DNA of 64,000 bases from an uncultured bacterium (GTDB lineage: Bacteria; Acidobacteriota; Thermoanaerobaculia; Multivoradales; JAHZIX01): positions 108,778 to 172,777 of the forward strand of contig CBDUPA010000015.1 in the NCBI GenBank assembly GCA_965368975.1, given 5' to 3'. The translations under genes were made by a program, and so were the position numbers. The first letter of the stretch is position 1; every line of letters starts with the position of its first letter. The notes below the pieces were generated by a model. The model did not search any database. It saw only the letters and a program-made list of their open reading frames with translations, and had not been told where the DNA came from. Positions 25,191 to 64,000 of the stretch are shown here, piece by piece.

Positions 25191-25371
25191 GGGCGGCCGC
25201 ACGGAGCCGCCGGCAACCGGGGGCCGGAAACGGAACCGGATCTCCGTTGCAGGAGGAACTCCCCACCCCACCCAGGTATTGCCTCGACTGCCAAAGTGTT
25301 CTAGAACTACCTTCATACGCAATAGCCACCCCACCGCCCACCTCGACGAAGGCGGTCCGCGAGGAGACGAG

Positions 25372-26748
25372 ATGCTCGAAGACCTGACCCGCTACACCCG
25401 CGTGCTCGAAATCATCGGCGACATGATCCGGGTGCAGGCCAAGGACGTGCCGGTGAAGACGCTGGCGGTGGTGCAGAACGTAGACGGTGAGGTATCACTG
25501 GCACGCGTGATCGAACTCGACGGCGACATGGTGAGCCTGCAGGTCTTCGCGGGCGGCAAGGGGCTGTCGACGGAGGCGCGGGTGCGCTTCCTGGGCGAGC
25601 CGCTGCAGGTGACGTACTCACCCAACATCCTGGGACGCATCTTCCGCGGCTCGGGCGAGGCGATCGACGGCGGACCGGATCTCTCGGCAGACCCAAAGAT
25701 CGACGTCGCGGGACCGACCGTCAACCCGATGATGCGCGTGATGCCGGCGAAGATGATCGAGACCAAGGTACCGATGATCGACGTCTTCAACTGCCTGGTG
25801 GAGAGCCAGAAGATCCCGATCTTCTCCGTCGCCGGTGAGCCCTACAACGAGTTGCTGGCGCGCATTGGCTTCCAGGCGGATGCGGATGTCGTCGTCTTCG
25901 GTGGTCTGGGCCTGATCTTCGACGACTACCACTTCTTCCGTACCGCCTTCGAAGAGCACGGCGTGTTCCACCGCACGGTCATGTTCGTCAACCTGGCATC
26001 GGACCCAATCGTCGAGCGCTTGATGGTTCCGGACCTCGCGCTGGCGGTGGCCGAGAAGTACGCGGTGGAAGAGGGCAAGCGGGTGCTGGTGCTGCTCACC
26101 GACATGACCGCCTACGCCGATGCGATGAAAGAGATCGGTGTGTCACTCGAACACATCCCGGCAACACGCGGCTACATGGGCGACCTCTACACGCAGCTGG
26201 CGTCGCGCTACGAGAAAGCGTGTGACTTCAAGGGCGCCGGCTCGGTGACCATCCTGACCGTCACCACCATGCCGGGCAACGACGTCACCCACCCGGTGCC
26301 GGACAACACCGGCTACATCACCGAGGGGCAGTTCTACCTCCAGGATCGCATGATCAACCCCTTCGGCTCGCTGTCGCGCCTGAAGCAGCACGTGATCGGC
26401 TCCGTCACGCGCGAGGATCACTCGCAGGTGATGAACACCATGATCCGGCTCTATGCCGGCGGCGTCGAAGCCGAGAAGAAGCAGGCGATGGCCTTCGACC
26501 TCTCTGCCTTCGACGACAAGCTGCTGCGCTTCTCGGACCTGTTCCGCGAGCGCTTCATGGACATCGAGGTGTCGCTGCCGCTCAACGACGCGCTCGACCT
26601 GTGCTGGCAGACGCTGGCGGAGTGCTTCGAGCCACAGGAGTTGCTGATGAAGCAGCACCTGATCGACAAGTTCTTCCCCAACCGCGATGCATCGAACCGC
26701 GACGATGACGCCAGCGGTGAGGTCACGGCCGCAGAGGACGCCGCCTGA
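25372..26748 (+). CDS. atpB: V/A-type ATP synthase subunit B
   Basis: SQKIPIFS, LTDMTAYADA, RGYMGDLY, THPVPDNTGYITEGQ and SLSRLK; GAGGAG RBS before ATG 25372. Confidence 0.95.
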   Translation: MLEDLTRYTRVLEIIGDMIRVQAKDVPVKTLAVVQNVDGEVSLARVIELDGDMVSLQVFAGGKGLSTEARVRFLGEPLQVTYSPNILGRIFRGSGEAIDGGPDLSADPKIDVAGPTVNPMMRVMPAKMIETKVPMIDVFNCLVESQKIPIFSVAGEPYNELLARIGFQADADVVVFGGLGLIFDDYHFFRTAFEEHGVFHRTVMFVNLASDPIVERLMVPDLALAVAEKYAVEEGKRVLVLLTDMTAYADAMKEIGVSLEHIPATRGYMGDLYTQLASRYEKACDFKGAGSVTILTVTTMPGNDVTHPVPDNTGYITEGQFYLQDRMINPFGSLSRLKQHVIGSVTREDHSQVMNTMIRLYAGGVEAEKKQAMAFDLSAFDDKLLRFSDLFRERFMDIEVSLPLNDALDLCWQTLAECFEPQELLMKQHLIDKFFPNRDASNRDDDASGEVTAAEDAA

Positions 26749-27422
26749 TGGCCAAGCTGGCGCTCAACAAGAGTACGCTGCACAAGCGGCGCGAGCAGCT
26801 GAAGCTGTATCGCCGCGTGCTGCCGTCGCTCGACCTGAAGCGCCAGCAATTGACCGCCGAGTTGAACCGCATGAAGGCCGAAGAAGAAACCCTGCGCAAA
26901 GAGTTCGACGCCACCCTCTTCGACGCCGGCGAACGCCTGCCGATGCTGGCGGACACGACGATGGACCTGCAAGGACTGCTGAAGGTCGAGGCGGTGGAAT
27001 TGAGCGAGGAGAACCTGCTCGGCGTCAAGCTGCCACGGCTCGACCGGCTGCAGACGCGGGTACGGGATTACTCGCTGCTGGCCAAGCCGCATTGGGTCGA
27101 CGTGGTGGTCGACCGCATGCGCCAGGCAGCGGAGTTGCAGCTGCGGTTGGAAGTGGCGGCCGAGCGGGTGCGGCGCACGGACCACGCGGTGCGGCGACTG
27201 ACCCAGCGGGTCAACCTGTTCGACAAGGTGCTGATCCCCCAGGCCCAGGACGACATCCAGCGCATCCGCATCTTCCTCGGCGACCTCGAGCGCGCCGCGG
27301 TCGTGCGCTCCAAGCTGGCCAAGAGCAAGTACCACAAGATGACAGCCCAACGGCAGGTCCAGCGCCAAGGCCACGAGCCGGGACGCGGAGACGGCGCCGA
27401 AGCGGCGGGGGGTGCGGCATGA
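26748..27422 (+). CDS. atpD: V/A-type ATP synthase subunit D
   Basis: LALNKSTL...LPSLDLKRQQL and TQRVNLFDKVLIP. Confidence 0.93.
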   Translation: MAKLALNKSTLHKRREQLKLYRRVLPSLDLKRQQLTAELNRMKAEEETLRKEFDATLFDAGERLPMLADTTMDLQGLLKVEAVELSEENLLGVKLPRLDRLQTRVRDYSLLAKPHWVDVVVDRMRQAAELQLRLEVAAERVRRTDHAVRRLTQRVNLFDKVLIPQAQDDIQRIRIFLGDLERAAVVRSKLAKSKYHKMTAQRQVQRQGHEPGRGDGAEAAGGAA

Positions 27423-29206
27423 TCGTGCCCTTGGTGCGCGTCACCTTCTACGGCCTGCTGGGCGAGAAGGCGCAGGTGCTCGAAGAACTTCAGGCCCAGG
27501 GCTGCTTGCACCTGCTGCCGCTGCGCGCGGGTGCCGAGGGCGAAGAGGCCGAACTGGCGATCGCGCAGGAGGTGCGCGACTCGCTGCAGTTCCTGCTCGC
27601 CTCGCCACTCAAGCGCCAGCAACGGCACGACCCCGAGCAGTTCGATGCCGCTCGTGTCCAGCGCCACGCGTTGGAAACCCAGGCCAAAATGCGCGAGCTG
27701 GAGGACCGCCGCGACTTCCTGCGCCGGCGTATCCGCGACCTCGAACCCTGGGGCGATTTCACCTTCCCGCCGCGCGACCGACTGCGCCAACAGCGACTGT
27801 GGTTCTACATCGTGCCGCACTACCTGATGCCGCGTGTCGCCGAGACGGAGCTGGTGTGGCAGACCGTGCACCGCGACACGCGCCACTGCTATGTCGTGGT
27901 CCTGGCCGAGGATGTGCCGCAGGGAATGCCGGTCGAGCGCACGCGCACCGGCGACCGGCCGCTGTCCGAACTGCGTCGCCGGCTGGAGCGCGTCGAGAGC
28001 GAGCTCGAAGACCAGCAGGTCGAGCGCTGGCGTCTGACCTGCTGGCTCGACCAGCTCGCCGGCTCGATGCACCGGCTGGAGAACCGCGCCGCGCGCGACC
28101 TGGCCGCCACCCGGACGCACGACACGGACCCGCTCTTCGTGCTGCAAGCGTGGGCCCCCAAGGACCACCTCGACGATCTGCGCACCTACGCAGAAACCAA
28201 GGGCCTGGCGCTGGTGACCGAAGAACCGAACGACGAGGATGCCCCACCGACGCTGCTGCGCAACCCGACCTTGGTGCGCGGTGGCCAGGATCTGGTGTCC
28301 TTCTACTCGACGCCCAGCTACGATCTTTGGGACCCGTCGCCCGTCGTCTTCTTCTCGTTCGCCGTCTTCTTCGCCATGATTCTGTCCGACGCTGGCTACG
28401 CGCTGCTGCTCGGCCTGCCGCTGCTGTTCAAGTGGAAGGCGATGGGCACGACGCCGGTGCGCCGCGGTCTGCGCAACCTGTGGCTGACACTCACCGCCAC
28501 CTCGGCTGCCTGGGGCATCGCGGTAGGCAGCTACTTCGGCCTGGCACCGCCCGAAGGCGGCCCACTGGCCAGCGTCAACCTGCTCGATGTGCGCGACAGC
28601 ACAACCATGATGAAGCTCTCCGTCGCCGTTGGCCTGCTGCACGTCGCCTTCGCCAACGCGGTGGGTGTATGGCGGCTGCGTCGCTCGGCGGCAATGCTGG
28701 TGCCCCTGGGCTGGCTGGTGATCCTGCTCACCGCCGGCTTCTGGGGCCTCTCCCACGGTACCGTGCTGGCCGCGCAGGGAGCGCTCGTGGGCCCCTGGGG
28801 CCTGGCAGCCGGCGGTACGCTGGTCCTGTTGTTCAGCGGCTTGGGGGCCAAGCCCTTCGGGCGCCTGTTCCAGGGCCTGATCGGCGTCTACCGGGTGACC
28901 AACGCTTTCGGCGACGTGCTCAGCTACCTGCGCCTGTTCGCCCTCGGGTTGGCCAGTGCATCGCTGGCCACCGCCTTCAACGACCTGGCCCGTCAGGTCG
29001 CCGAGGACATGCCAGCCTTCGGCATGCTGCTGGCCCTGATCGTGCTGCTCTTCGGTCACGGTCTCAACTTCCTGCTCGCCGTGGTCAGCGGCTTCGTGCA
29101 TGGCCTGCGGCTCAACTTCATCGAATTCTTCAACTGGGGTGTGCCCGAAGAGGGCCGCCCGTTCCGCGCTTTCGCCAAGAAGGAGGCAGTCCAGTGGAAT
29201 CCATGA
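27419..29206 (+). CDS. atpI: V/A-type ATP synthase subunit I (a)
   Basis: ATG at 27419 (ATGA overlap); PPTLLRN, FFAMILSDAGY, DVLSYLRLFALGL and HGLRLNFIEFF. Confidence 0.93.
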   Translation: MIVPLVRVTFYGLLGEKAQVLEELQAQGCLHLLPLRAGAEGEEAELAIAQEVRDSLQFLLASPLKRQQRHDPEQFDAARVQRHALETQAKMRELEDRRDFLRRRIRDLEPWGDFTFPPRDRLRQQRLWFYIVPHYLMPRVAETELVWQTVHRDTRHCYVVVLAEDVPQGMPVERTRTGDRPLSELRRRLERVESELEDQQVERWRLTCWLDQLAGSMHRLENRAARDLAATRTHDTDPLFVLQAWAPKDHLDDLRTYAETKGLALVTEEPNDEDAPPTLLRNPTLVRGGQDLVSFYSTPSYDLWDPSPVVFFSFAVFFAMILSDAGYALLLGLPLLFKWKAMGTTPVRRGLRNLWLTLTATSAAWGIAVGSYFGLAPPEGGPLASVNLLDVRDSTTMMKLSVAVGLLHVAFANAVGVWRLRRSAAMLVPLGWLVILLTAGFWGLSHGTVLAAQGALVGPWGLAAGGTLVLLFSGLGAKPFGRLFQGLIGVYRVTNAFGDVLSYLRLFALGLASASLATAFNDLARQVAEDMPAFGMLLALIVLLFGHGLNFLLAVVSGFVHGLRLNFIEFFNWGVPEEGRPFRAFAKKEAVQWNP

Positions 29207-29652
29207 CCCTGGTCCTCGGATGGCTCGGTATCTTCGCACCGGTCGCCCTGGGGGCGGTGGGCAGCATCATCGGCTGCGCGCGCGCTGGCCAGGCGGCTTG
29301 CGGGGCGCTGCTCGAGACCGAAACCGGCCACGGCCGTTACATCGGCATCTCGGCCATGCCCTCGTCGCAGACCATCTACGGCATCGTCGTGATGCTCACC
29401 CTCAACCGTGCGGTCGACCTCGACAACGCACCCGGCCTGTTCGCCATCGGTGTACTCTCCGGTGTGGCACTGATGCTCAGCGGCATCCACCAGGGCAACT
29501 GCTGCGCCTCGGCGATCAACGTGTCGAAGAGCAAGACGTCGATCTTTGGCCTGTCGATCGCACCAGCGGCGGTGGTCGAAGGCTTCGCCGTCTTCGTCTT
29601 CGTCTTCGCCTTGGTGCTGTCAGGCGGCCTACCGGGCGCCGGAGGGTCCTGA
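29194..29652 (+). CDS. atpK: V/A-type ATP synthase subunit K (c), four-TM proteolipid
   Basis: AGGAGG RBS then GTG 29194; GSIIGCARAG, MPSSQTIYG, HQG and VVEGFAVF. Confidence 0.92.
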   Translation: MESMTLVLGWLGIFAPVALGAVGSIIGCARAGQAACGALLETETGHGRYIGISAMPSSQTIYGIVVMLTLNRAVDLDNAPGLFAIGVLSGVALMLSGIHQGNCCASAINVSKSKTSIFGLSIAPAAVVEGFAVFVFVFALVLSGGLPGAGGS

Positions 29653-29655
29653 GTC

Positions 29656-30348
29656 ATGCCCTCTCCAGCCACGCAGCACCCGGTGTCCTCGGGCGTCCAG
29701 GAGCTGATCGAGCGGCTGCGGCGCGAGGGCGTCGAAGCCGGTGAGTCCGAGGCACGCGACGCCGTCGCCCAGGCGCGCCGGCAGGCCGACGAGATCCTCA
29801 GCTCGGCACGCCGCGAGGCCGAAGAGCTGCATGCGCGCACACGTCGAGAACTCGCAGCCGAGCGCGACGCCGCGCACGAGGCTCTGCGCCTGGCCGCCCG
29901 CGACCTGCAGCTCGAACTCAAAGAGCGCCTGACCGCCCGCTTCGAGGCACAGGTCAAGCAGCTGGTGAGCGCCGATTTGTCGAGCCACGATGGCCTGCGA
30001 GCACTGATCCTCGCCGTCGCCGGCCACGTCGGTGTGGAGCTAGCGGACGCGGCCGACGCGGGCCAACAGATGCAGGTAGCCGTCAGCGGCGATCTGTCGA
30101 ACGAGCAACTCGACACGCTGACCCGCGAACTCGCCGCCGGCCTGCTGCGCGAGGGCGTCGAGCTGGTGCCAGCAGCCGAGGGCGGCCCAACCGGTAGCAC
30201 GGCCAGCGGTGCCCAAGACGGCGGTATCCGCGTCCGGCTGGCGGACCAGGACATCGAGGTCGACCTCAGCGCGAACGCTCTCGCCAGCTTGCTGCTGCGC
30301 CGCTTGACGCCGCGCTTCCGCGAACTGTTCGCCGCACTGACGGCCTGA
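29656..30348 (+). CDS. atpE: V/A-type ATP synthase subunit E
   Basis: GVQELIERLRREGV, Ala/Glu/Arg-rich coiled coil, GIRVRL...EVDLS and PRFRELF. Confidence 0.85.
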   Translation: MPSPATQHPVSSGVQELIERLRREGVEAGESEARDAVAQARRQADEILSSARREAEELHARTRRELAAERDAAHEALRLAARDLQLELKERLTARFEAQVKQLVSADLSSHDGLRALILAVAGHVGVELADAADAGQQMQVAVSGDLSNEQLDTLTRELAAGLLREGVELVPAAEGGPTGSTASGAQDGGIRVRLADQDIEVDLSANALASLLLRRLTPRFRELFAALTA

Positions 30349-30373
30349 GGCCCGAGCAGGAGAGAACTTCCCC

Positions 30374-31081
30374 GTGAGCAACCGTCACTACTACACGTTG
30401 ATGGCCAGCCTGCCGCCGCTACCGCGCTTCGACCGCGCCGACCGGCTGCCGATCAACCAGGAGCGTCTCAACGAGCGCATGTCGATGCTCGAAGACGACG
30501 ATGCCGACGTGGTGCGCGCCGCCGAGAACTACCTGCATTGGAACCGCCAGCCGGTCGATCGCACGTCGGCCGAGGTCGTCGAGTTCTACGGCCAGCTGAT
30601 CGCTCGCTCCAGCGATGAGACGCTCAACGCCATGCTCGAGTACCGCATGACCGAGCGTACGATCATCGCCGCTCTGCGCCGCCGGCTGCGCGGGCACCCA
30701 CCGCCGGCCGCCGGTGAGCCCTGGGGTGTTGGCCCGTGGGTCGGCCACATCGAGCGCAATTGGGACGCTCCCGACTTCCGTCTCAGCCCGGTCTTCCCGT
30801 GGTTGCCGGAAGCCAAGCGCCTGCTCGAAGACGGCGAAGCACGCGAGCTGCAACGCTTGCTGATGGGCCTGATCTGGGACCAGCTCGTGCGCCTGGCCGA
30901 GAACCGTCCCTTTCACTTCGACGCCCTGCTCTGCTACCTCTTCCGCTGGGACATCTTGCGCCGCTGGCTGAGCTACGAAGACACCGCCACGGCCCGTCAC
31001 CGCTTCCGTCAGCTACTCAGCCAGGTGACCGCCGACCATCACCTGGAGTTCGCGCCTCCGACGTCGATAGCCGCCTCCTGA
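30374..31081 (+). CDS. DUF2764-family protein (subunit C-like) of the V/A-ATPase operon
   Basis: YYTLMASLP N-terminus and FHFDALLCY...W C-terminus; lies between subunits E and A. Confidence 0.8.
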   Translation: MSNRHYYTLMASLPPLPRFDRADRLPINQERLNERMSMLEDDDADVVRAAENYLHWNRQPVDRTSAEVVEFYGQLIARSSDETLNAMLEYRMTERTIIAALRRRLRGHPPPAAGEPWGVGPWVGHIERNWDAPDFRLSPVFPWLPEAKRLLEDGEARELQRLLMGLIWDQLVRLAENRPFHFDALLCYLFRWDILRRWLSYEDTATARHRFRQLLSQVTADHHLEFAPPTSIAAS

Positions 31082-31100
31082 AATCCTGAGGACCGCCACC

Positions 31101-32918
31101 ATGCCCACGACCTCGCCCCCAACTCCTCACACCGGCACGAGCCACGACCTCTCTGTAGGTCACGTCGTCGCCGTGCGCGACAACCTGCTGACGGTGAACG
31201 TCACCTCCGGCCCGATGATGAAGAACGAGGTCGCCTACGTCTGCCTCGGCGACCTGCGGCTGAAGGCCGAAGTCCTGCGCATCCAGGGCACCAGCGCGGA
31301 CCTACAGGTGTTCGAAGAAACCGCAGGCGTGCAGGTGGGCGACCGCGTCGAACTGACCAGCGAGTTGCTCTCCGTCACGCTCGGCCCTGGCCTCTTGGGC
31401 CAGGTGTTCGACGGTCTGCAACAGCCGCTGAGCGAGCTCGCACGCCAGTACGGCTTCTTCCTGCCACGCGGCATCACGCTCGACCCGCTCGACCGCAGCA
31501 AGAAGTGGCCCGTCACCGCCGTCGCCGCTCCCGGTGACCGTGTTGCCCCCGGCGGTGTCCTCGCGACGGTCCCGGAAGGCCCGTTCGAGCACAAGATCCT
31601 GGTGCCGTTCAATGAACCGGAAGCCGTCGAAGTGACCTGGATCCGCTCCGGCAACCTGACGCTCGACGAACCCCTCGCCCGCCTGCGCGGCGCCGACGGC
31701 CGCGAGCGGGAGATCGGCCTGACGCAGCGTTGGCCGGTGCGCAAACCCATCCCCGCGGGCTTGCTGCAGCGTCGCCACGCCGAGCGCCTCTATCCCAACG
31801 AGCCCCTGATCACGACCATCCGCCTGGTCGACACCTTCTTCCCCATCGCCCGCGGCGGCACCGCCTGCATCCCCGGCCCCTTCGGCGCCGGCAAGACCGT
31901 CTTGCAGAGCCTCTTCTCGCGCTACTCCAGCGCCGACATCGTGATCGTCGTCGCCTGCGGTGAGCGGGCCGGTGAGGTGGTCGAGACGATCACCGAGTTC
32001 CCCGAGATGCAGGACCCGCGCACCGGCGGTTCGCTGATGGACCGCACCATCATCATCTGCAACACCTCGTCCATGCCCGTCGCCGCCCGCGAGTCGTCGA
32101 TCTACACCGGCATCACCCTGGGGGAGTACTACCGCCAGATGGGCTACAGCGTCCTGGTACTCGCCGACTCGACATCCAGGTGGGCCCAGGCGATGCGCGA
32201 GATCTCGGGCCGCATGGAAGAGATCCCGGGCGAGGAAGCCTACCCCGCCTACCTCGACTCCTCGATCCGCAACATCTACGAACGCGCCGGCGTCATCCAA
32301 TGCGCCGACGGCAGCGTCGGCAGCCTGACGCTCGTCGGCACGGTCTCCCCGGCGGGCGGCAACTTCGAAGAACCGGTCACGCAGGCTACCTTGTCGACCG
32401 TCAAGACCTTTCTCGGCCTGTCGTCCGACCGCGCCTACAAGCGATACTATCCCGCCATCGACCCCTTGCTCTCCTGGTCGCGCTACCTCGACCAGCTCGC
32501 CCACTGGTACAAGGACAACCTGGACGACACCTGGGTCGCGGACGTCAAGGAACTCTCCGAGCTCCTACGCCGAGGCGACTCGATCCACCAGATGATGCAG
32601 GTGACCGGCGAAGAAGGCATCACGCTCGACGACTATGTCGTATGGCAGAAGGCGACGCTCTTGGACCTGGTCTACCTGCAGCAAGACGCCTTCGACGACA
32701 TCGACGTCTCGAACACGCTCGACCGTCAGAAAGACAGCTTCCACCTACTGCGTGACCTGATCCGGCGGAGCTACAACTTCGCTGACAAAGACCAGGCACG
32801 CAACTACTTCACGCGCCTGACTGGCCTGTACAAGAACCTCAACTACAGCGCCGACGGTGGCCCAGAGCACCAGCGCTACAAGCAACAGATCACGGACTTG
32901 GCAGCGCAGTATTCGTAG
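31101..32918 (+). CDS. atpA: V/A-type ATP synthase subunit A (catalytic)
   Basis: PGPFGAGKTV, ACGERAGE, NTSSMPVAARE, ADSTSRWAQA and SPAGGNFEEPVTQ. Confidence 0.96.
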   Translation: MPTTSPPTPHTGTSHDLSVGHVVAVRDNLLTVNVTSGPMMKNEVAYVCLGDLRLKAEVLRIQGTSADLQVFEETAGVQVGDRVELTSELLSVTLGPGLLGQVFDGLQQPLSELARQYGFFLPRGITLDPLDRSKKWPVTAVAAPGDRVAPGGVLATVPEGPFEHKILVPFNEPEAVEVTWIRSGNLTLDEPLARLRGADGREREIGLTQRWPVRKPIPAGLLQRRHAERLYPNEPLITTIRLVDTFFPIARGGTACIPGPFGAGKTVLQSLFSRYSSADIVIVVACGERAGEVVETITEFPEMQDPRTGGSLMDRTIIICNTSSMPVAARESSIYTGITLGEYYRQMGYSVLVLADSTSRWAQAMREISGRMEEIPGEEAYPAYLDSSIRNIYERAGVIQCADGSVGSLTLVGTVSPAGGNFEEPVTQATLSTVKTFLGLSSDRAYKRYYPAIDPLLSWSRYLDQLAHWYKDNLDDTWVADVKELSELLRRGDSIHQMMQVTGEEGITLDDYVVWQKATLLDLVYLQQDAFDDIDVSNTLDRQKDSFHLLRDLIRRSYNFADKDQARNYFTRLTGLYKNLNYSADGGPEHQRYKQQITDLAAQYS

Positions 32919-39925: not shown

Positions 39926-40792
39926 TTACCCTCGGAACTGGTCGAAGAATGATCGCTCGACCTCGAATACCCGGACCGGCGATAGCCCAAGTTCAAGCTG
40001 TTCGAGCATAGTGATCAACTTCTCACTGTCTACAAGTTCGATCGGCGGTGCCCCCTCCCGCACTGCTTCACGCTTTGCTTCTGACGTGAACGAGCCGGTT
40101 GTCAAGATAATCCCCTTGTCGGCTCGCCCTGTCATAGCTCCACGAAAGTCACGAACCTGGGAAGGGCTGACTGATCCCGAGTAACGCTTGCACTGAAAGA
40201 GAACTCGAAAGCTCACCAAGGGATTGACCTGCAGAATGCCAATGCCATCGATTCCACCGTCTCCAGATCGACCCGTGACGGTTACCTCTTCGAATCCCGA
40301 TTCGCGAAGGAGTCGTTGACAGAATCTCTCGAAGCCCCCAGGATGCATTTCTCTCAAAACTTCGAGTACTTGTTGGCGATGGCCTAGAGCCTCAGAATCA
40401 CCATTTTCACCAGAATCATCGACATCCTTGACACTGGACTCCGAAGCAGAGCGTGAACGCGGAAACTCTGATTGAACATCTCGAAAGATTCCCAGAGCTT
40501 GTTTTCTGGAGAGCGGATGAGCAGCTCGCCCCGCATCGGCCAACGTCCAGACACCACGGCGAGAGGAATCGATCAAACCTGCCTTTGCCAGGTAGAAGCG
40601 AGCCCAGGCAACCTGGTTATCGAACCGGCTGGTGCCACTGCTCATGATCTCCGCTTGCTCCTCCTCAGAGATTCCCAGGCTAGCTACAATCTGCTCGCGG
40701 ACCTCCGCAGGGCGAGCCGACCCCCCCAGGTCTACCAACGCTGAAAGTACTGGCCCGAAGTATCGAACAAATGCGGGACCTGTCGATGCCAA
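39926..40792 (-). CDS. mrr: Mrr-family (type IV) restriction endonuclease
   Basis: N-terminal RFDNQVAWARFYLAKAGLI...RGVW; catalytic FERFC, SGDGGIDG, QCKRY and VRDFRGA; GGAGG RBS before TTG 40792; visibly more AT-rich than its neighbours. Confidence 0.92.
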   Translation of the reverse strand: MASTGPAFVRYFGPVLSALVDLGGSARPAEVREQIVASLGISEEEQAEIMSSGTSRFDNQVAWARFYLAKAGLIDSSRRGVWTLADAGRAAHPLSRKQALGIFRDVQSEFPRSRSASESSVKDVDDSGENGDSEALGHRQQVLEVLREMHPGGFERFCQRLLRESGFEEVTVTGRSGDGGIDGIGILQVNPLVSFRVLFQCKRYSGSVSPSQVRDFRGAMTGRADKGIILTTGSFTSEAKREAVREGAPPIELVDSEKLITMLEQLELGLSPVRVFEVERSFFDQFRG

Positions 40793-40868
40793 TTTCCCTA
40801 CCTCCACTTTACAGTTATGCGGGCGCCGAGCTGAGGCGAGTTCGCCTCCCAAAATCCACTTCGGCTAT

Positions 40869-41386: not shown

Positions 41387-43861
41387 TCAGTCGAGCTCAG
41401 GGGATACCTGGAAGCTCGGGACCTCGCCGCCGAGGGTGGCGGTCTTGGACGAACGCGGGGCCGCCACCAGTAGGCGAATCGCCGTGCCATCCCGCGCGAC
41501 GGTGGCCGTGCTGCCTAGCCGCGCCCGCTTCTCACCGGAGAACTGCCGCCAATTCGCCGTGGCCGCGCCGACGGAGCCGGTGGGAAAGGACGCTCCACCG
41601 AACCAGGCATAGACGGCACCGGCATCGATACCCGCCTCGGTCCAGCGCTGCGGCTCGGTGATCAGGAGGTCGTCGCGGCCGTCACCGTTCACGTCGGTCA
41701 GACCGAGGCGCCAGCCGAAGCGGGCGAGATCCTGATCACCGCTGATGTGGGTGACGGCGGCGATGCGGTCGAGGCGTTGGTCGCCTCGCAGGTCGCCGGT
41801 CTCGAGGAGCCAGACCGCTCCTCGCTGCGGTTCGCTGGGTTCGAAGGCCGACGGGGAGGGCGCGGCGACGGCCAGCACCGGACCGGTACCGGGATTTCCG
41901 AAGGCCAGTGCCGACCCCAGCCCACCGTAGCGGCTCTGGCCGCGCAGTGTGAACCCCAGTCGCGGTTGCCTGGGATCGCTGAGGTCGTAGCCGTAGACGG
42001 CTCCGGCGGCCTGGCGTTGACCCGGCAGCCACTTGCTGCCGGGAGCACCGACCACCAGCCGTCGCGGCTGCCCTGGGGCGTCGATCAAGGCGGTGGTGGC
42101 ACCGAACCAATCGGTCGGGTGCTCGCCGCTGAGCGTCCAGACCGGGGCCAGTTGTGCGCCGCCTTCGACCGCTGAGGACGCGAGGTAGACGGACACCTGC
42201 CCGGCCTGCCGGCCACCACGCGGGTGGTCCGCCTGCGGCGCCCCGACCACCAGGTCACGGTAGCCGTCACCGTCGACATCGAGCCCGTTGAGGTGCCAGC
42301 CGAAGTTGGCGCGATCTCGCTCGGGCGCCAAGATCAGCCCTGGATCCGGGGCCAGCCCCCTGGCGGTGCCGAAGTAGACGTACACCTTGCCACGGTATTG
42401 CAGACGACTGGCACCGGTGGTGGGTGCCCCGACGGCCAAGTCATCGCGGCCGTCGGCGTTCAGATCGACCACCGCCAGGGCCCAGCCAAAGCGAGCGTGG
42501 GGCTCGTGCCCGACCAGGTCGATCGGCCCCTCGATTGGTCCCTCGATCAGGGCGTCGACCGAACCGTCCGGGAAGACCGAGCGTACCTGGACGCCACCAA
42601 CCTGGGCTTGCTGCGGCAGCGAGTAGCCCGGTACGCCGATCGCTACCTGCGTTCGGCCACCGAAGCGGCCGGTGGCCAGAGCCGTGCCCGTGTATCGGTA
42701 GGCGGCGTCGGTACCGGCCGGCACTCTCACGCTCAGGGACTCGGCGGCAGCGGTGCCCGCCGGTACGAAGCGCACGCCGCCCGCGACGGCAACCTGTTCC
42801 AGCTGGCCGGCAGTCGCGAGGACCTGTCGCCCCACCGTGCCGTCGAAGGTGAGGTCGTGGGTCGCAACAGCAGTGGTACTCGGAGCAGTACCACGCGCAC
42901 CCGAGTCGTAGTCTTCGCCTGCTACTCTTTCGGGGCAGTACAGGGCCCCACGAGATGCTTGTTCTGCCGTGGGTTCCTGCTCGAACAAGGCGGTAAGTCG
43001 CGGCCAGAACTCCGCGATCAGGACGGCGCTGTTGTCGGTGCCGCCGGCAAAGTAGTCCTCGAAGCGCTCGACGAGGAACGGAGACCTCTTGACGAACTCA
43101 GGGTAAACGTCCCGGTAGAAAATCTCCTGCAGCGTCGAGCTGGTTTCCACCCTGCGGAACGCGATCACGGCAGCGCTCATCAGCTTGGTCGCCTGCACCA
43201 ATTGATCCCGAGTCACCCCGTAATTCCTGCCTTCTCGGCGGCCCAAGGCCTCGTAGACCTGCTCGATGTCCTGCATCGGAAAGTAGAACGCATCGGTGGC
43301 CCAGCGTGGATCGTTCTGGTAGATGTCCACGACCATGCCACCCGCGTCACCAATGTCGTGGGCCCTCCTCGGATCCGAGGGTGGATACTGCGGCTGATTG
43401 TCGTAGCTGCGCAGGCTGTAGGTCTCGCTGAAGTCCTGGTTGGACATCGCCTGCAGGAACCCGGGCAAACCGCCGCCACAATCGAGGTTGTGCCAGTAGA
43501 GGTCGCTGAGGCCGTGGGTCATCATCCCCAGAACGAACACCGCCAGCTTCTCTGTCGCTTCATCCCAAGGCTTCGGCTTTGATCGAAGCAGTCGGCTGGC
43601 TTCCTCCAGGAAGGGCGTCCAGTGGGCCGCTCCGCTGGCGTCTGGATTGACGCTCTCGGCAAAGCCCCAATCCGGGAAGATCGCCCCGGCCTGGAAGGCA
43701 TCCGGGTGCTTCAGCAGCAGCTCGCGCTGCGGGCTGTCGGCGCTCAGGGAGTAGAAGTGCAGCGCCCGGCGGGCGATCTCCACATGGTGCCCGATGCCAT
43801 TGGCCAGCGCGCACACCGGGGCGAGCAGGAGCACCAGGAGCAAGGTCGTCTTCCGGCTCAT
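41387..43861 (-). CDS. Secreted GPI-specific phospholipase D (GPLD1)-like protein: Zn-dependent phospholipase domain + FG-GAP/integrin-alpha beta-propeller
   Basis: ATG 43861 (ATGA overlap with the upstream gene); signal peptide; HVEIARRAL, FQAGAIFPD, HWTPFL, PWDEATEKL, THGLSDLYWH and AHDIGD; repeats FGWAL..VDLNADGRDDLAVGAP, DVDGDGYRDLVVGAP and DVNGDGRDDLL. Confidence 0.88.
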   Translation of the reverse strand: MSRKTTLLLVLLLAPVCALANGIGHHVEIARRALHFYSLSADSPQRELLLKHPDAFQAGAIFPDWGFAESVNPDASGAAHWTPFLEEASRLLRSKPKPWDEATEKLAVFVLGMMTHGLSDLYWHNLDCGGGLPGFLQAMSNQDFSETYSLRSYDNQPQYPPSDPRRAHDIGDAGGMVVDIYQNDPRWATDAFYFPMQDIEQVYEALGRREGRNYGVTRDQLVQATKLMSAAVIAFRRVETSSTLQEIFYRDVYPEFVKRSPFLVERFEDYFAGGTDNSAVLIAEFWPRLTALFEQEPTAEQASRGALYCPERVAGEDYDSGARGTAPSTTAVATHDLTFDGTVGRQVLATAGQLEQVAVAGGVRFVPAGTAAAESLSVRVPAGTDAAYRYTGTALATGRFGGRTQVAIGVPGYSLPQQAQVGGVQVRSVFPDGSVDALIEGPIEGPIDLVGHEPHARFGWALAVVDLNADGRDDLAVGAPTTGASRLQYRGKVYVYFGTARGLAPDPGLILAPERDRANFGWHLNGLDVDGDGYRDLVVGAPQADHPRGGRQAGQVSVYLASSAVEGGAQLAPVWTLSGEHPTDWFGATTALIDAPGQPRRLVVGAPGSKWLPGQRQAAGAVYGYDLSDPRQPRLGFTLRGQSRYGGLGSALAFGNPGTGPVLAVAAPSPSAFEPSEPQRGAVWLLETGDLRGDQRLDRIAAVTHISGDQDLARFGWRLGLTDVNGDGRDDLLITEPQRWTEAGIDAGAVYAWFGGASFPTGSVGAATANWRQFSGEKRARLGSTATVARDGTAIRLLVAAPRSSKTATLGGEVPSFQVSPELD

Positions 43862-45267
43862 GCCGCCACCGCGGCCTTGTCGGCGGTCACGTCGTCCGAG
43901 GCGGCGCCAGCGCGGCGCACGGACACCGCGACTCCGGCGACCTCGCACAGCTTCTTGCCATCCGCCGTGAAGGTATCGATCACGGTTTGGTCCAGACCGA
44001 TGCGCAGAGGAACGCCGCCGATCGTCGGCGTGATCTCGGGCAACTGAAACACCGGAATCTTCAGCAACGCGATCATGTTGACGATGAGGTTGGCGATCGG
44101 ACTCAAGAGCTCATCGACGATGCGTGACAGGAGCCGGTTGATGAATTCGGGCACCTCGTCGAACCGGAGGTCGATGTTCAAGCGCTGGGTCAGGCTGAAT
44201 TGATGGAAGCGCACCCAGCCCTCAGAGAGCAGGACCGAAGCCACGACCTGCGGCCTGGCCAGAATCGACAGACCCACGCGGACCCAATCCCACCACTTCC
44301 AGAAAGCCCTGATGCGGAAGCCTGCCCGACCTGAACCATAGGCCTCCAGGGATGCCAGGGTCTTGTTGCCGTCCTGCAGCGCGAAGCGAGGACTGCGCAG
44401 ACCGACGCTGAAGCTGGCGCGCCCTTCGATCCCCAACCCTGGCTCCCACTCTTCCTTGCCGTGGGCCTGCCCCGCCTGGCGCGTGTGCCGGAGAATGCTG
44501 GTCGCCGCGCCGTTGGCCACGGCGTCGTCGAAGTGCACGAAAACGCCCTTGCGGTTGCGCACGGTAATCCCCTCGGGCGCCTGCGTCGTCGACCCCTTGA
44601 GGGCCGCGTAGCCGGCAACCACGCCTTGGCTGACCCGCACGGCGGGCGCCGCGAACTCGACGCCCTCGAAGCGGATCGCTGGCAATTCGAAGCCCTTGCC
44701 GAGGTACTCATTGACCTTGGGCAGCAGTAAGGGAACAAGGTAGTCGTTGACCAGCCGTTCCAGCTCCGGGTCCGGCTTGCCGGTCAGCTGGACTCGGGCG
44801 GTCAGCGCCTGCGGCACCAGCCTCCAATCAGGCGTGAACTGGGCGACGGCACCGATCGAAACGGAGCCCTCGAACCGGCGCTCGGGCCGGCCGTTGATCG
44901 AAACACCCAGGATGACCTTGTTGGCCAAAACGTCGAAGCTGGCCCTGGAATCCACCATCCCGTCGATCAGCGAAGTCACGTCCGTCCCTTGCAACAACTC
45001 GGCGACGGCTGCCGCGCCAGCTTGCTCCGCCTGCGGCTGCGTCCAGCTGGCCAGCAATCCGGCCTTGTACTCGGCCACCAGCGCAGAGTTCTTGAACCGG
45101 AAGACGAAGGCCTGAGCCAGGTCGTAGGTCGCCTTGATCTTCAAAGGCTCGGTCACTTCGAGTTCGCCTTTGAGCGGAGCGTTGGGATAGATCTGAGCGT
45201 GGAGTTGCCTGGAAAGGTTGTTGAAACTCTCTTCTGTCGCGCCTGCTACCGCGTTGTACGTGGCCAT
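43858..45267 (-). CDS. Hypothetical beta-rich protein, possibly BPI/LBP (TULIP) fold
   Basis: GAGGAG RBS then ATG 45267; about 469 aa; two halves each with a strand-helix opening, long alternating strands and a closing amphipathic helix; no signal peptide. The CDS is well supported, the fold is a guess. Confidence 0.6.
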   Translation of the reverse strand: MATYNAVAGATEESFNNLSRQLHAQIYPNAPLKGELEVTEPLKIKATYDLAQAFVFRFKNSALVAEYKAGLLASWTQPQAEQAGAAAVAELLQGTDVTSLIDGMVDSRASFDVLANKVILGVSINGRPERRFEGSVSIGAVAQFTPDWRLVPQALTARVQLTGKPDPELERLVNDYLVPLLLPKVNEYLGKGFELPAIRFEGVEFAAPAVRVSQGVVAGYAALKGSTTQAPEGITVRNRKGVFVHFDDAVANGAATSILRHTRQAGQAHGKEEWEPGLGIEGRASFSVGLRSPRFALQDGNKTLASLEAYGSGRAGFRIRAFWKWWDWVRVGLSILARPQVVASVLLSEGWVRFHQFSLTQRLNIDLRFDEVPEFINRLLSRIVDELLSPIANLIVNMIALLKIPVFQLPEITPTIGGVPLRIGLDQTVIDTFTADGKKLCEVAGVAVSVRRAGAASDDVTADKAAVAA

Positions 45268-45427
45268 GCTCTTCTCCTCGTACCTGCACTCCTCGTCGAG
45301 CACGGGGAGACACAGGGAGCCTCGGGTTGTCTCTTGCAGTCATCCTCCGACGCTCGCAGGAAGCTGAAGAGTCTCGACCCAAGGCTGTCGCCAGGCGCGG
45401 CAACCTCTCACCGTCTTTGCAGGCCGC

Positions 45428-46414
45428 TCACTTCTCGTCGACCCAGGTCTGCCCTGCCTTCTCGACTTCACTGTCCCAGCCGCGCCGTGTGTCGTGGGTT
45501 TCCTCGTCGCCGCCGTTGACGCGGATCTTCCAGGTGGTGTCGCTCTTCATGTGGCCTTTGCCCGGCAGACAGGTGACTTCGATGTCGACCACATCACCCG
45601 CAGCCACCTCCACGGGTGCGTGTAGGGGCAGGCGCGGACGGCCCCAGTGGGTGTCAGGGGCTTCGGGGCCGGTGGACAGTTCGACGCCACCGCCCAGATC
45701 ACTGGTGAACCAGAGCACGAAGGCGTTGAGACGACCCGCACGCTGGACCTCGAAGCTGGCACGGCCGTGGTAGGGCTGGCGCGACTCCGTGGCCGAGAAG
45801 GTATGGCAGTCGTGGCGCCACAGCTGGCTGGCGGGGGCCAGGAGTTCGGACGCCGGACTGGGCCGGCCCGGACGCTGGACGTTCTCGCACAGGACGTCCG
45901 CCATGCGGCCGAGCTCGACGCCGTAGGGCTGACCGCGCCAGAACTCCATGTCTTCGTGGAACTGGGCATTGTCGACCGGCGCGATGTAGACCGTGCAGTC
46001 GGCCGGCATCATGGCGCCGCCGGGCTTCAGGTACTTGTCGCGCGCGTCGAGCATGGCGGGCAGCATGTTCTCGTCGACGCCGTAGGTCCCCATCCACTCG
46101 GAGACGATCAGATCGACCTTGCCCGGCAACTCGACCTCGGACGCATCCGCTTCGAGCACCTCGATGCGGTCACTCAGGCCGTTGTCGGCAATGAAGTGAC
46201 GGGCCAGCTGAGCCATGTGACTGATCTCGACGGCGTAAACTTTCTCGGCCCCAGCGCGGGCCGCGAAGATGCTCAGCAAGCCACTGCCGGCACCGACGTC
46301 GAGCACGGTCTGCCCCGGCTGGACGACCGCGTTCAGGGCCTGCTGGAACGCTTCGCAGCGGGCGCGGTCGCGCAGCATGATCAGGTGCATGACAATGGAG
46401 GCGTAGTGGTACAT
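45428..46414 (-). CDS. PRMT-type (eukaryote-like arginine) SAM-dependent methyltransferase
   Basis: MLRDRAR, VLDVGAGSGLLS, VYAVE, double-E loop SEWMGTYGVDE, YLKPGG and THW loop (PDTHW); GAGGAG RBS. Confidence 0.9.
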   Translation of the reverse strand: MYHYASIVMHLIMLRDRARCEAFQQALNAVVQPGQTVLDVGAGSGLLSIFAARAGAEKVYAVEISHMAQLARHFIADNGLSDRIEVLEADASEVELPGKVDLIVSEWMGTYGVDENMLPAMLDARDKYLKPGGAMMPADCTVYIAPVDNAQFHEDMEFWRGQPYGVELGRMADVLCENVQRPGRPSPASELLAPASQLWRHDCHTFSATESRQPYHGRASFEVQRAGRLNAFVLWFTSDLGGGVELSTGPEAPDTHWGRPRLPLHAPVEVAAGDVVDIEVTCLPGKGHMKSDTTWKIRVNGGDEETHDTRRGWDSEVEKAGQTWVDEK

Positions 46415-46444
46415 GAGATCTCCTCGGTAAAGACTCGGCAGAGT

Positions 46445-64000
<17,556 letters not shown>

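Follow-up and report, generated by a model that had tools for sequence, protein, structure and literature searches.

Why should a gene for a protein arginine methyltransferase (PRMT) stand directly behind the last gene of a polyketide synthase-nonribosomal peptide synthetase (PKS-NRPS) in a bacterium, and on what would its product act? The question is raised by a 64,000-nucleotide (nt) stretch of DNA from an uncultured member of the Acidobacteriota (assembly GCA_965368975.1, contig CBDUPA010000015.1, positions 108,778 to 172,777), the whole of which is referred to here as the window. The gene occupies 45428..46414 on the minus strand; it begins with ATG, ends with a stop codon at 45428-45430 and encodes a protein of 328 amino acids (aa), as evident from the list of open reading frames (ORFs) and the translation. 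The original prediction, made from the sequence, described it as a eukaryote-type arginine methyltransferase that tailors a guanidine group of the synthetase product or of its precursor. The reading favoured here, tentatively and with somewhat more doubt than confidence, is that the gene encodes a pathway-linked guanidino-N-methyltransferase acting on an arginine-type unit, be it free, carrier-bound or part of the released product.

The fold and the catalytic residues of the protein are directly established. Residues 140-290 match the Pfam family PRMT_C, the arginine methyltransferase oligomerisation subdomain, with 64.2 bits against a cut-off of 27, and several class-I methyltransferase families of Pfam match as well; no NCBIfam model is reached by the 328-aa protein. 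Sequence search of the PDB gave 98 distinct matching chains, and 60 out of 60 among the matches listed bear arginine-methyltransferase names. The best match is PRMT6 (E 3.4e-47, residues 4-305, 34% identity); PRMT1/PUA, PRMT2, PRMT3, PRMT8 and CARM1 are also found; over the whole set, PRMT6 included, the alignments are full-length and the E values range from 3e-47 to 8e-32.

Regular-expression searches of the translation bear out the PRMT hallmarks that had been claimed, with one correction. The N-terminal helix HLIMLRDRAR (residues 10-19) carries H..ML.D..R, the Arg of which binds the carboxylate of S-adenosylmethionine in type-I PRMTs, motif I reads VLDVGAGSG (37-45), the post-I segment VYAVE (59-63) ends in the acidic residue E63, and the THW loop lies at 255-257. 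The double-E loop SEWMGTYGVDE spans residues 105-115, and its glutamates E106 and E115, nine residues apart, align to the PRMT6 loop. The literal pattern Y..Y....H..ML.D..R, however, finds no match. The motif ahead of the helix, which we take to be the one named YFxxY, is not present in full; Y4 is its only tyrosine, because the protein starts three residues before Y4, where the first tyrosine of the eukaryotic motif would lie. Short and variable N-termini are also seen in most of 40 aligned bacterial homologues. In this alignment D16, R19, E63, E106, E115 and the residues of motif I are invariant, and H10, T255, H256 and W257, each conserved in at least 90% of the homologues, are all present in the window protein.

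The AlphaFold2 model, for which an alignment of 40 bacterial homologues was used, reached a mean pLDDT (predicted local distance difference test) of 93.8 and a pTM (predicted template modelling score) of 0.90. Comparison of the model with PRMT6, PRMT2 and PRMT3 by Foldseek gave TM (template modelling) scores of 0.80-0.86 over 312-332 columns at 28-34% identity. Helices 150-160 and 169-176 are placed where the dimerisation arm lies and are followed by the barrel. The protein thus shares with the eukaryotic type-I PRMTs the two-domain fold of a Rossmann half and a β-barrel with arm helices, along with motif I, the post-I glutamate, the double-E loop and the THW loop. It also has Met residues that align with those of PRMT6, to which the TM score is 0.80-0.84. 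It differs from the eukaryotic enzymes in its minimal length of 328 aa, without an N-terminal extension or the first YFxxY tyrosine, and in that its gene is bacterial and operon-coupled to a PKS-NRPS. Taken from sequence and model, the ORF is a full-length type-I PRMT-fold methyltransferase dependent on S-adenosylmethionine (SAM), with an intact double-E/THW site and a predicted guanidine catalysis.

The label "eukaryote-type" turns out to be misleading, as the protein belongs to a large bacterial family. A word-indexed search of 5.8 billion proteins, in which 8000 candidates were scored, gave 306 matches with E ≤ 1e-20; identity is 41-47% for the best of these matches, and the majority have a length of 302-342 aa. 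When 1.84 billion representatives were searched exhaustively, 14,637 passed a threshold of E ≤ 1e-3, and 1,494 passed one of E ≤ 1e-30. By record title, the public-genome loci that bear homologues come from Acidobacteriota, Planctomycetota, Myxococcota/Polyangia, Actinomycetota, Verrucomicrobiota, Alphaproteobacteria (Hyphomicrobium) and others. Source names of the homologues include "SAM-dependent methyltransferase", "protein arginine N-methyltransferase 1", "prmt6 [Microbacteriaceae]" and "L11 methyltransferase [Pyrinomonadaceae]". On sequence comparison, the enzyme is a member of this large family of free-standing bacterial PRMTs of ~317 aa, with which it has length, architecture and invariant residues in common at 38-47% identity. 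It is unlike them in having no relative above 47%: the nearest protein among the 5.8 billion has 47% identity, and the window protein forms a singleton cluster at 90% identity. A further difference is the position of its gene directly behind a megasynthase, whereas none of 60 public-genome loci of the family lies near NRPS/PKS domains. Bacterial PRMTs are listed with "unknown" function in a review passage (PMC10117894).

The coupling of the gene to the synthetase is likewise read from the sequence. The megasynthase ORF (46445..64000, minus strand) ends with TGA at 46445-46447 and runs off the window end at its other side. Exactly 30 nt (46415..46444, minus strand) separate this TGA from the PRMT ATG at 46414, and a GGAG ribosome-binding site is read at 46420-46423, five nt 5' of the ATG. 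Both ORFs are co-oriented on the minus strand, and the last megasynthase domain is a thioesterase (46541..47377, minus strand; PF00975, 80.3 bits, residues 2542-2820 of the 46445-55000 translation). The claim that the gene stands co-oriented, 30 nt behind a thioesterase-terminated PKS-NRPS, therefore agrees with the sequence. Between 43500 and 46700, a scan for consensus sequences revealed neither promoter-like nor terminator-like sites. The co-oriented 30-nt junction, free of any such terminator, speaks for expression of the gene together with the synthetase, and the gene arrangement indicates that the PRMT gene is coupled to the PKS-NRPS in an operon-like manner and is presumably co-transcribed with it.

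The two ORFs also use a common reading frame, with one TGA and ten codons between them, which could be a coincidence (one chance in three) or a remnant of a fusion, either past or occasional. No fusion of a PRMT to a thioesterase or to another NRPS/PKS domain was found among proteins of 575-2000 aa, the size range of the search, outside which megasynthases of more than 2000 aa lie: the 24 matches at E ≤ 1e-10 carry no NRPS/PKS Pfam domains and are mostly tetratricopeptide repeat (TPR) fusions and eukaryotic proteins. The G+C content by codon position in the minus frame of the PRMT gene is 0.69/0.45/0.857, a pattern typical of the real genes of the host. This rules out a chance ORF or antisense artefact, the overlapping plus-strand ORF giving the mirror pattern. 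Recent foreign acquisition of the gene is unsupported, since its third-position G+C content (GC3) of 0.857 resembles that of its neighbours and not that of an Mrr-type gene nearby (0.537); from this value the gene appears long resident.

The window holds the 3' 5851 codons of the megasynthase, for which Pfam, run on two halves, gave the order KS-AT-ACP-aminotransferase(class III)-C-A-PCP-C-A-PCP-KS-AT-KR-ACP-TE. The class-III aminotransferase domain (~58400-60500, minus strand) follows KS-AT-ACP, an arrangement predicted to install a β-amino group on the polyketide-extended chain and presumably comparable to that of iturin- or microcystin-type synthetases. The window ends with contig C15, which interrupts the gene. 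The last 55 nt of C15 (window 63946-64000) are the first 55 nt of contig C10 (L133 1-55) and occur in no other contig. The megasynthase frame is continuous across the junction with an 18-residue overlap, so that the cluster probably extends onto C10; the junction rests on an overlap of k-mer length. On C10 the megasynthase gene opens with C-A-PCP-C-A-PCP and is preceded by a gene of 3538 aa (A-PCP-C-A-PCP-KS-AT-KR-ACP), 5' of which lie two ORFs without Pfam match, a DedA/VTT protein and a TonB-dependent receptor. The thioesterase module used as a query met nothing above 39% identity in 40 related genomes.

Both genes seem to be peculiar to this host. The PRMT gene has no match in five of five same-family genomes, and nine same-order genomes match it at E ≤ 1e-10 with 30-40% identity. 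Neither an orthologous megasynthase (best 39% identity) nor an orthologous PRMT was found in the 40 relatives, and both therefore look specific to this genome.

The mechanism proposed for a guanidino-N-methyltransferase of the pathway would be as follows. The gene would share a transcript with the final PKS-NRPS gene of a cluster specific to this lineage, and its product would serve that pathway. As inferred from the PRMT family, motif I, R19 and E63 would hold SAM in the Rossmann half, and the two glutamates of the double-E loop, E106 and E115, would grip the guanidinium of the substrate beside H256 of the THW loop. One methyl group or, by type-I logic, two would then be transferred to an omega nitrogen. 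The substrate may be arginine or another guanidino unit, either free, as for SznE, carrier-bound, or within the released hybrid peptide-polyketide. That the substrate is a guanidine and that the enzyme acts towards the cluster product is what we infer from fold, residues and coupling. A more specific version, in which the free-standing PRMT-fold enzyme works in trans on the assembly line and methylates a guanidine in an intermediate that is still carrier-bound or already released, is conceivable and rather doubtful.

The functional precedent is the one named in the original prediction, and its description holds in print: SznE of streptozotocin biosynthesis (UniProt A0A411EW25) is an arginine-guanidino methyltransferase that converts free L-Arg to N-omega-methyl-L-arginine (review, PMC11705231), and an SznE homologue has been used to locate the saskemycin cluster (preprint, PMC12637814). 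By the reaction described in these two papers, SznE/StzE would resemble the window enzyme in being cluster-encoded and in methylating the guanidine of arginine. It differs in that the substrate of SznE is free L-Arg and its product goes on to SznF, whereas no SznF-like partner was recognised at the window cluster.

A number of observations weigh against a role of the gene in the pathway or against a guanidine as its substrate, and the search for a guanidine source is one of them. Six adenylation (A) domain pocket codes, read by hand from motif landmarks, are DLEALGAVSK, DACSVGVVVK, DPLPAGLVTK, DAFALGVTFK, DTDGCSMVGK and DPLPQGQIDK. None of the six fits the pattern usual for arginine, the assignments being weak. 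An acidic pocket residue occurs in three of the six hand-read codes, and the last code (DPLPQGQIDK) has Asp at a position which we take to pair with basic or amide side chains. In a PDB sequence search the last A domain gave generic best matches only, LgrA first, and no specificity is assigned to it. Pfam recognised no amidinotransferase, no SznF-like gene and no other consumer of N-methylarginine among the neighbours, where three flanking ORFs are without any Pfam match (43858-45303, 481 aa; L133 17950-19926, 658 aa; L134 2-1432, 477 aa). The proposal of a guanidine tailoring enzyme thus retains its intact guanidinium-binding site and operon-like coupling, but no arginine-activating A domain or other guanidine source is recognised beside it.

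The distribution of homologues points the same way. Their flanks were scanned with phmmer, the KS, AT, aminotransferase, C, A and TE segments of the window serving as queries. NRPS/PKS domains were found beside free-standing homologues at 0 of 15 loci in a first public-genome set with flanks of up to 10 kb and at 0 of 45 loci in a second, where one locus matched only the generic aminotransferase. Among the short-flank loci L004-L014 (~1.5 kb), only L012, an embedded domain, matched these queries. The one case in nine same-order loci is genome G025 (contig C37, L129 2348-3622), in which a free-standing but divergent PRMT-like gene (32% identity), with both the double-E pair and THW retained, stands head-to-head, ~1.3 kb from an NRPS with an open frame of 7061 aa. 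The open-access papers searched yielded no report of a free-standing PRMT gene beside NRPS/PKS genes. It had been laid down beforehand that an absence of linkage between homologues and biosynthetic clusters would refute a tailoring role, and for the family as a whole the counts (0/15, 0/45 and 1/9) come close to such an absence. Moreover, the gene stands at the edge of its cluster in a host where frames of at least 1500 aa take up 15% of the DNA. Nearness to a cluster therefore carries little weight in this genome; a 30-nt co-oriented junction carries more.

The PRMT fold itself also occurs in assembly lines of this order in another form. PRMT-like methyltransferase domains lie inside interrupted A domains on contig C17 of the host (L030 11773-12990, frame of 5351 aa) and in two same-order genomes, G021 (L031 11196-12365) and G010 (L032 7342-8511), with frames of 5201 and 3668 aa. 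For the embedded domain of the 3668-aa frame, 60 of 60 among the PDB matches listed (of 65) are of PRMT type, CARM1 being the best at 5.9e-18. The THW histidine is lost in all three embedded domains; the double-E pair is kept in two, and in one Asn replaces the first glutamate. Comparable domains are described for lyngbyapeptin B: the O-methyltransferase domains of LynB3 and LynB5 show ~30% similarity with arginine methyltransferases and presumably act on the hydroxyl group of tyrosine (PMC10127204). The occurrence of PRMT-derived domains in NRPS frames of the host and its order is counted in favour of a pathway role for the window gene. As embedded PRMT-like domains are presumed to O-methylate tyrosine, the fold alone is no proof of a guanidine substrate, which is a further point on the opposing side.

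These embedded domains form the basis of one rival explanation, according to which the window enzyme places its methyl group on a nucleophile of the product other than a guanidine, for instance a phenol or an amine. LynB3 and LynB5 offer a parallel for it, being PRMT-derived methyltransferases recruited to a nonribosomal assembly line (PMC10127204), and the embedded domains in the host and in its order show that such recruitment has counterparts close by. However, the lyngbyapeptin domains act in cis between A-domain motifs as presumed phenol O-methyltransferases, whereas the window enzyme is free-standing: it is not inserted in an A domain but is a separate ORF with its own start and ribosome-binding site. 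Its identity with the free-standing PRMTs (43-47%) also exceeds that with the embedded domains (29-32%). Further, the embedded domains have lost the THW histidine, while the window enzyme keeps it together with both glutamates, the complete guanidine-binding set. This explanation is accordingly judged improbable. A comparably small probability is given to a self-resistance or effector enzyme, which would methylate arginine in the target protein of the producer or in a protein of another organism and so blunt the action of the product. The same fold and coupling evidence that favours a pathway methyltransferase can be claimed for it, as can the canonical peptide-type PRMT architecture, retained in the model down to the two helices at the position of the dimerisation arm. 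Resistance genes are commonly located at cluster edges, which counts for it too; against it, no precedent for resistance via protein arginine methylation was found in the open-access papers searched.

The strongest competitor, unlikely on balance, is an ordinary bacterial protein-arginine methyltransferase that acts on cellular proteins and lies merely downstream of the megasynthase, with no role in the metabolite. It is in keeping with the closest relatives being free-standing PRMTs from several phyla, with the lack of NRPS/PKS domains at their 60 public-genome loci, and with the frequency of long frames in the host, where a place beside a cluster is easily come by. The neighbours of the homologues agree with it as well: once antisense ORFs are filtered out, no universal partner gene emerges, and neighbour genes are kept only within lineages. 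What tells against it is the 30-nt junction, which speaks for co-expression with the synthetase, and the failure to find the gene in any of the five same-family genomes, from which it would not be a conserved housekeeping gene of this lineage. Pathway-linked guanidino-N-methylation hence remains the favoured reading, held with the reserve stated at the outset.

The surroundings of the cluster are in agreement with the PRMT gene being its last recognisable member on this side. The next gene downstream, after a 124-nt gap, is an orphan ORF of 481 aa (43858..45303, minus strand) without Pfam or NCBIfam match; it is probably coding, as suggested by its GC3 of 0.836, and no match to it was found in 40 related genomes at E ≤ 1e-5. 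Further downstream lie a Zn-PLC/FG-GAP protein, an Mrr-type restriction endonuclease, a TAT-signal amine oxidase, a kinase/deacetylase, and V-type ATPase and pst transport genes. The Mrr gene (39926-40852, minus strand) has a G+C content of 0.553 and a GC3 of 0.537, against ~0.8-0.86 in its neighbours, and is probably a recent foreign insertion. The V/A-type ATPase subunits (A, B and I-like), on the plus strand at 25279-32918, adjoin permeases of a pst-type phosphate transporter. The downstream genes look unrelated, and the PRMT gene would therefore be the last recognisable gene on the megasynthase transcript.

By its RpoB the host is an acidobacterium, as the best public matches to this protein, at 73-77% identity, come from metagenome-assembled genomes of Thermoanaerobaculia and other Acidobacteriota. 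The host assembly of 7.13 Mb contains 104 open frames of at least 1500 aa, which make up 15% of its DNA, the longest including frames of 14,804, 13,272 and 12,957 aa; it is an exceptionally megasynthase-rich acidobacterial genome. To our knowledge, the natural products of the Acidobacteriota are almost unexplored. A PRMT welded to a PKS-NRPS operon provides a concrete and testable substrate hypothesis. If the gene is unrelated to the cluster, it is an ordinary bacterial PRMT homologue. If the enzyme acts in trans on the assembly line, tailoring enzymes of assembly lines would for the first time include one from the PRMT family, and the ~317-aa bacterial PRMTs, a large and unstudied family, would gain their first member with a biochemical function. 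If its role in the pathway is true, the gene would serve as a genome-mining handle for N-methyl-guanidine metabolites in Acidobacteriota.

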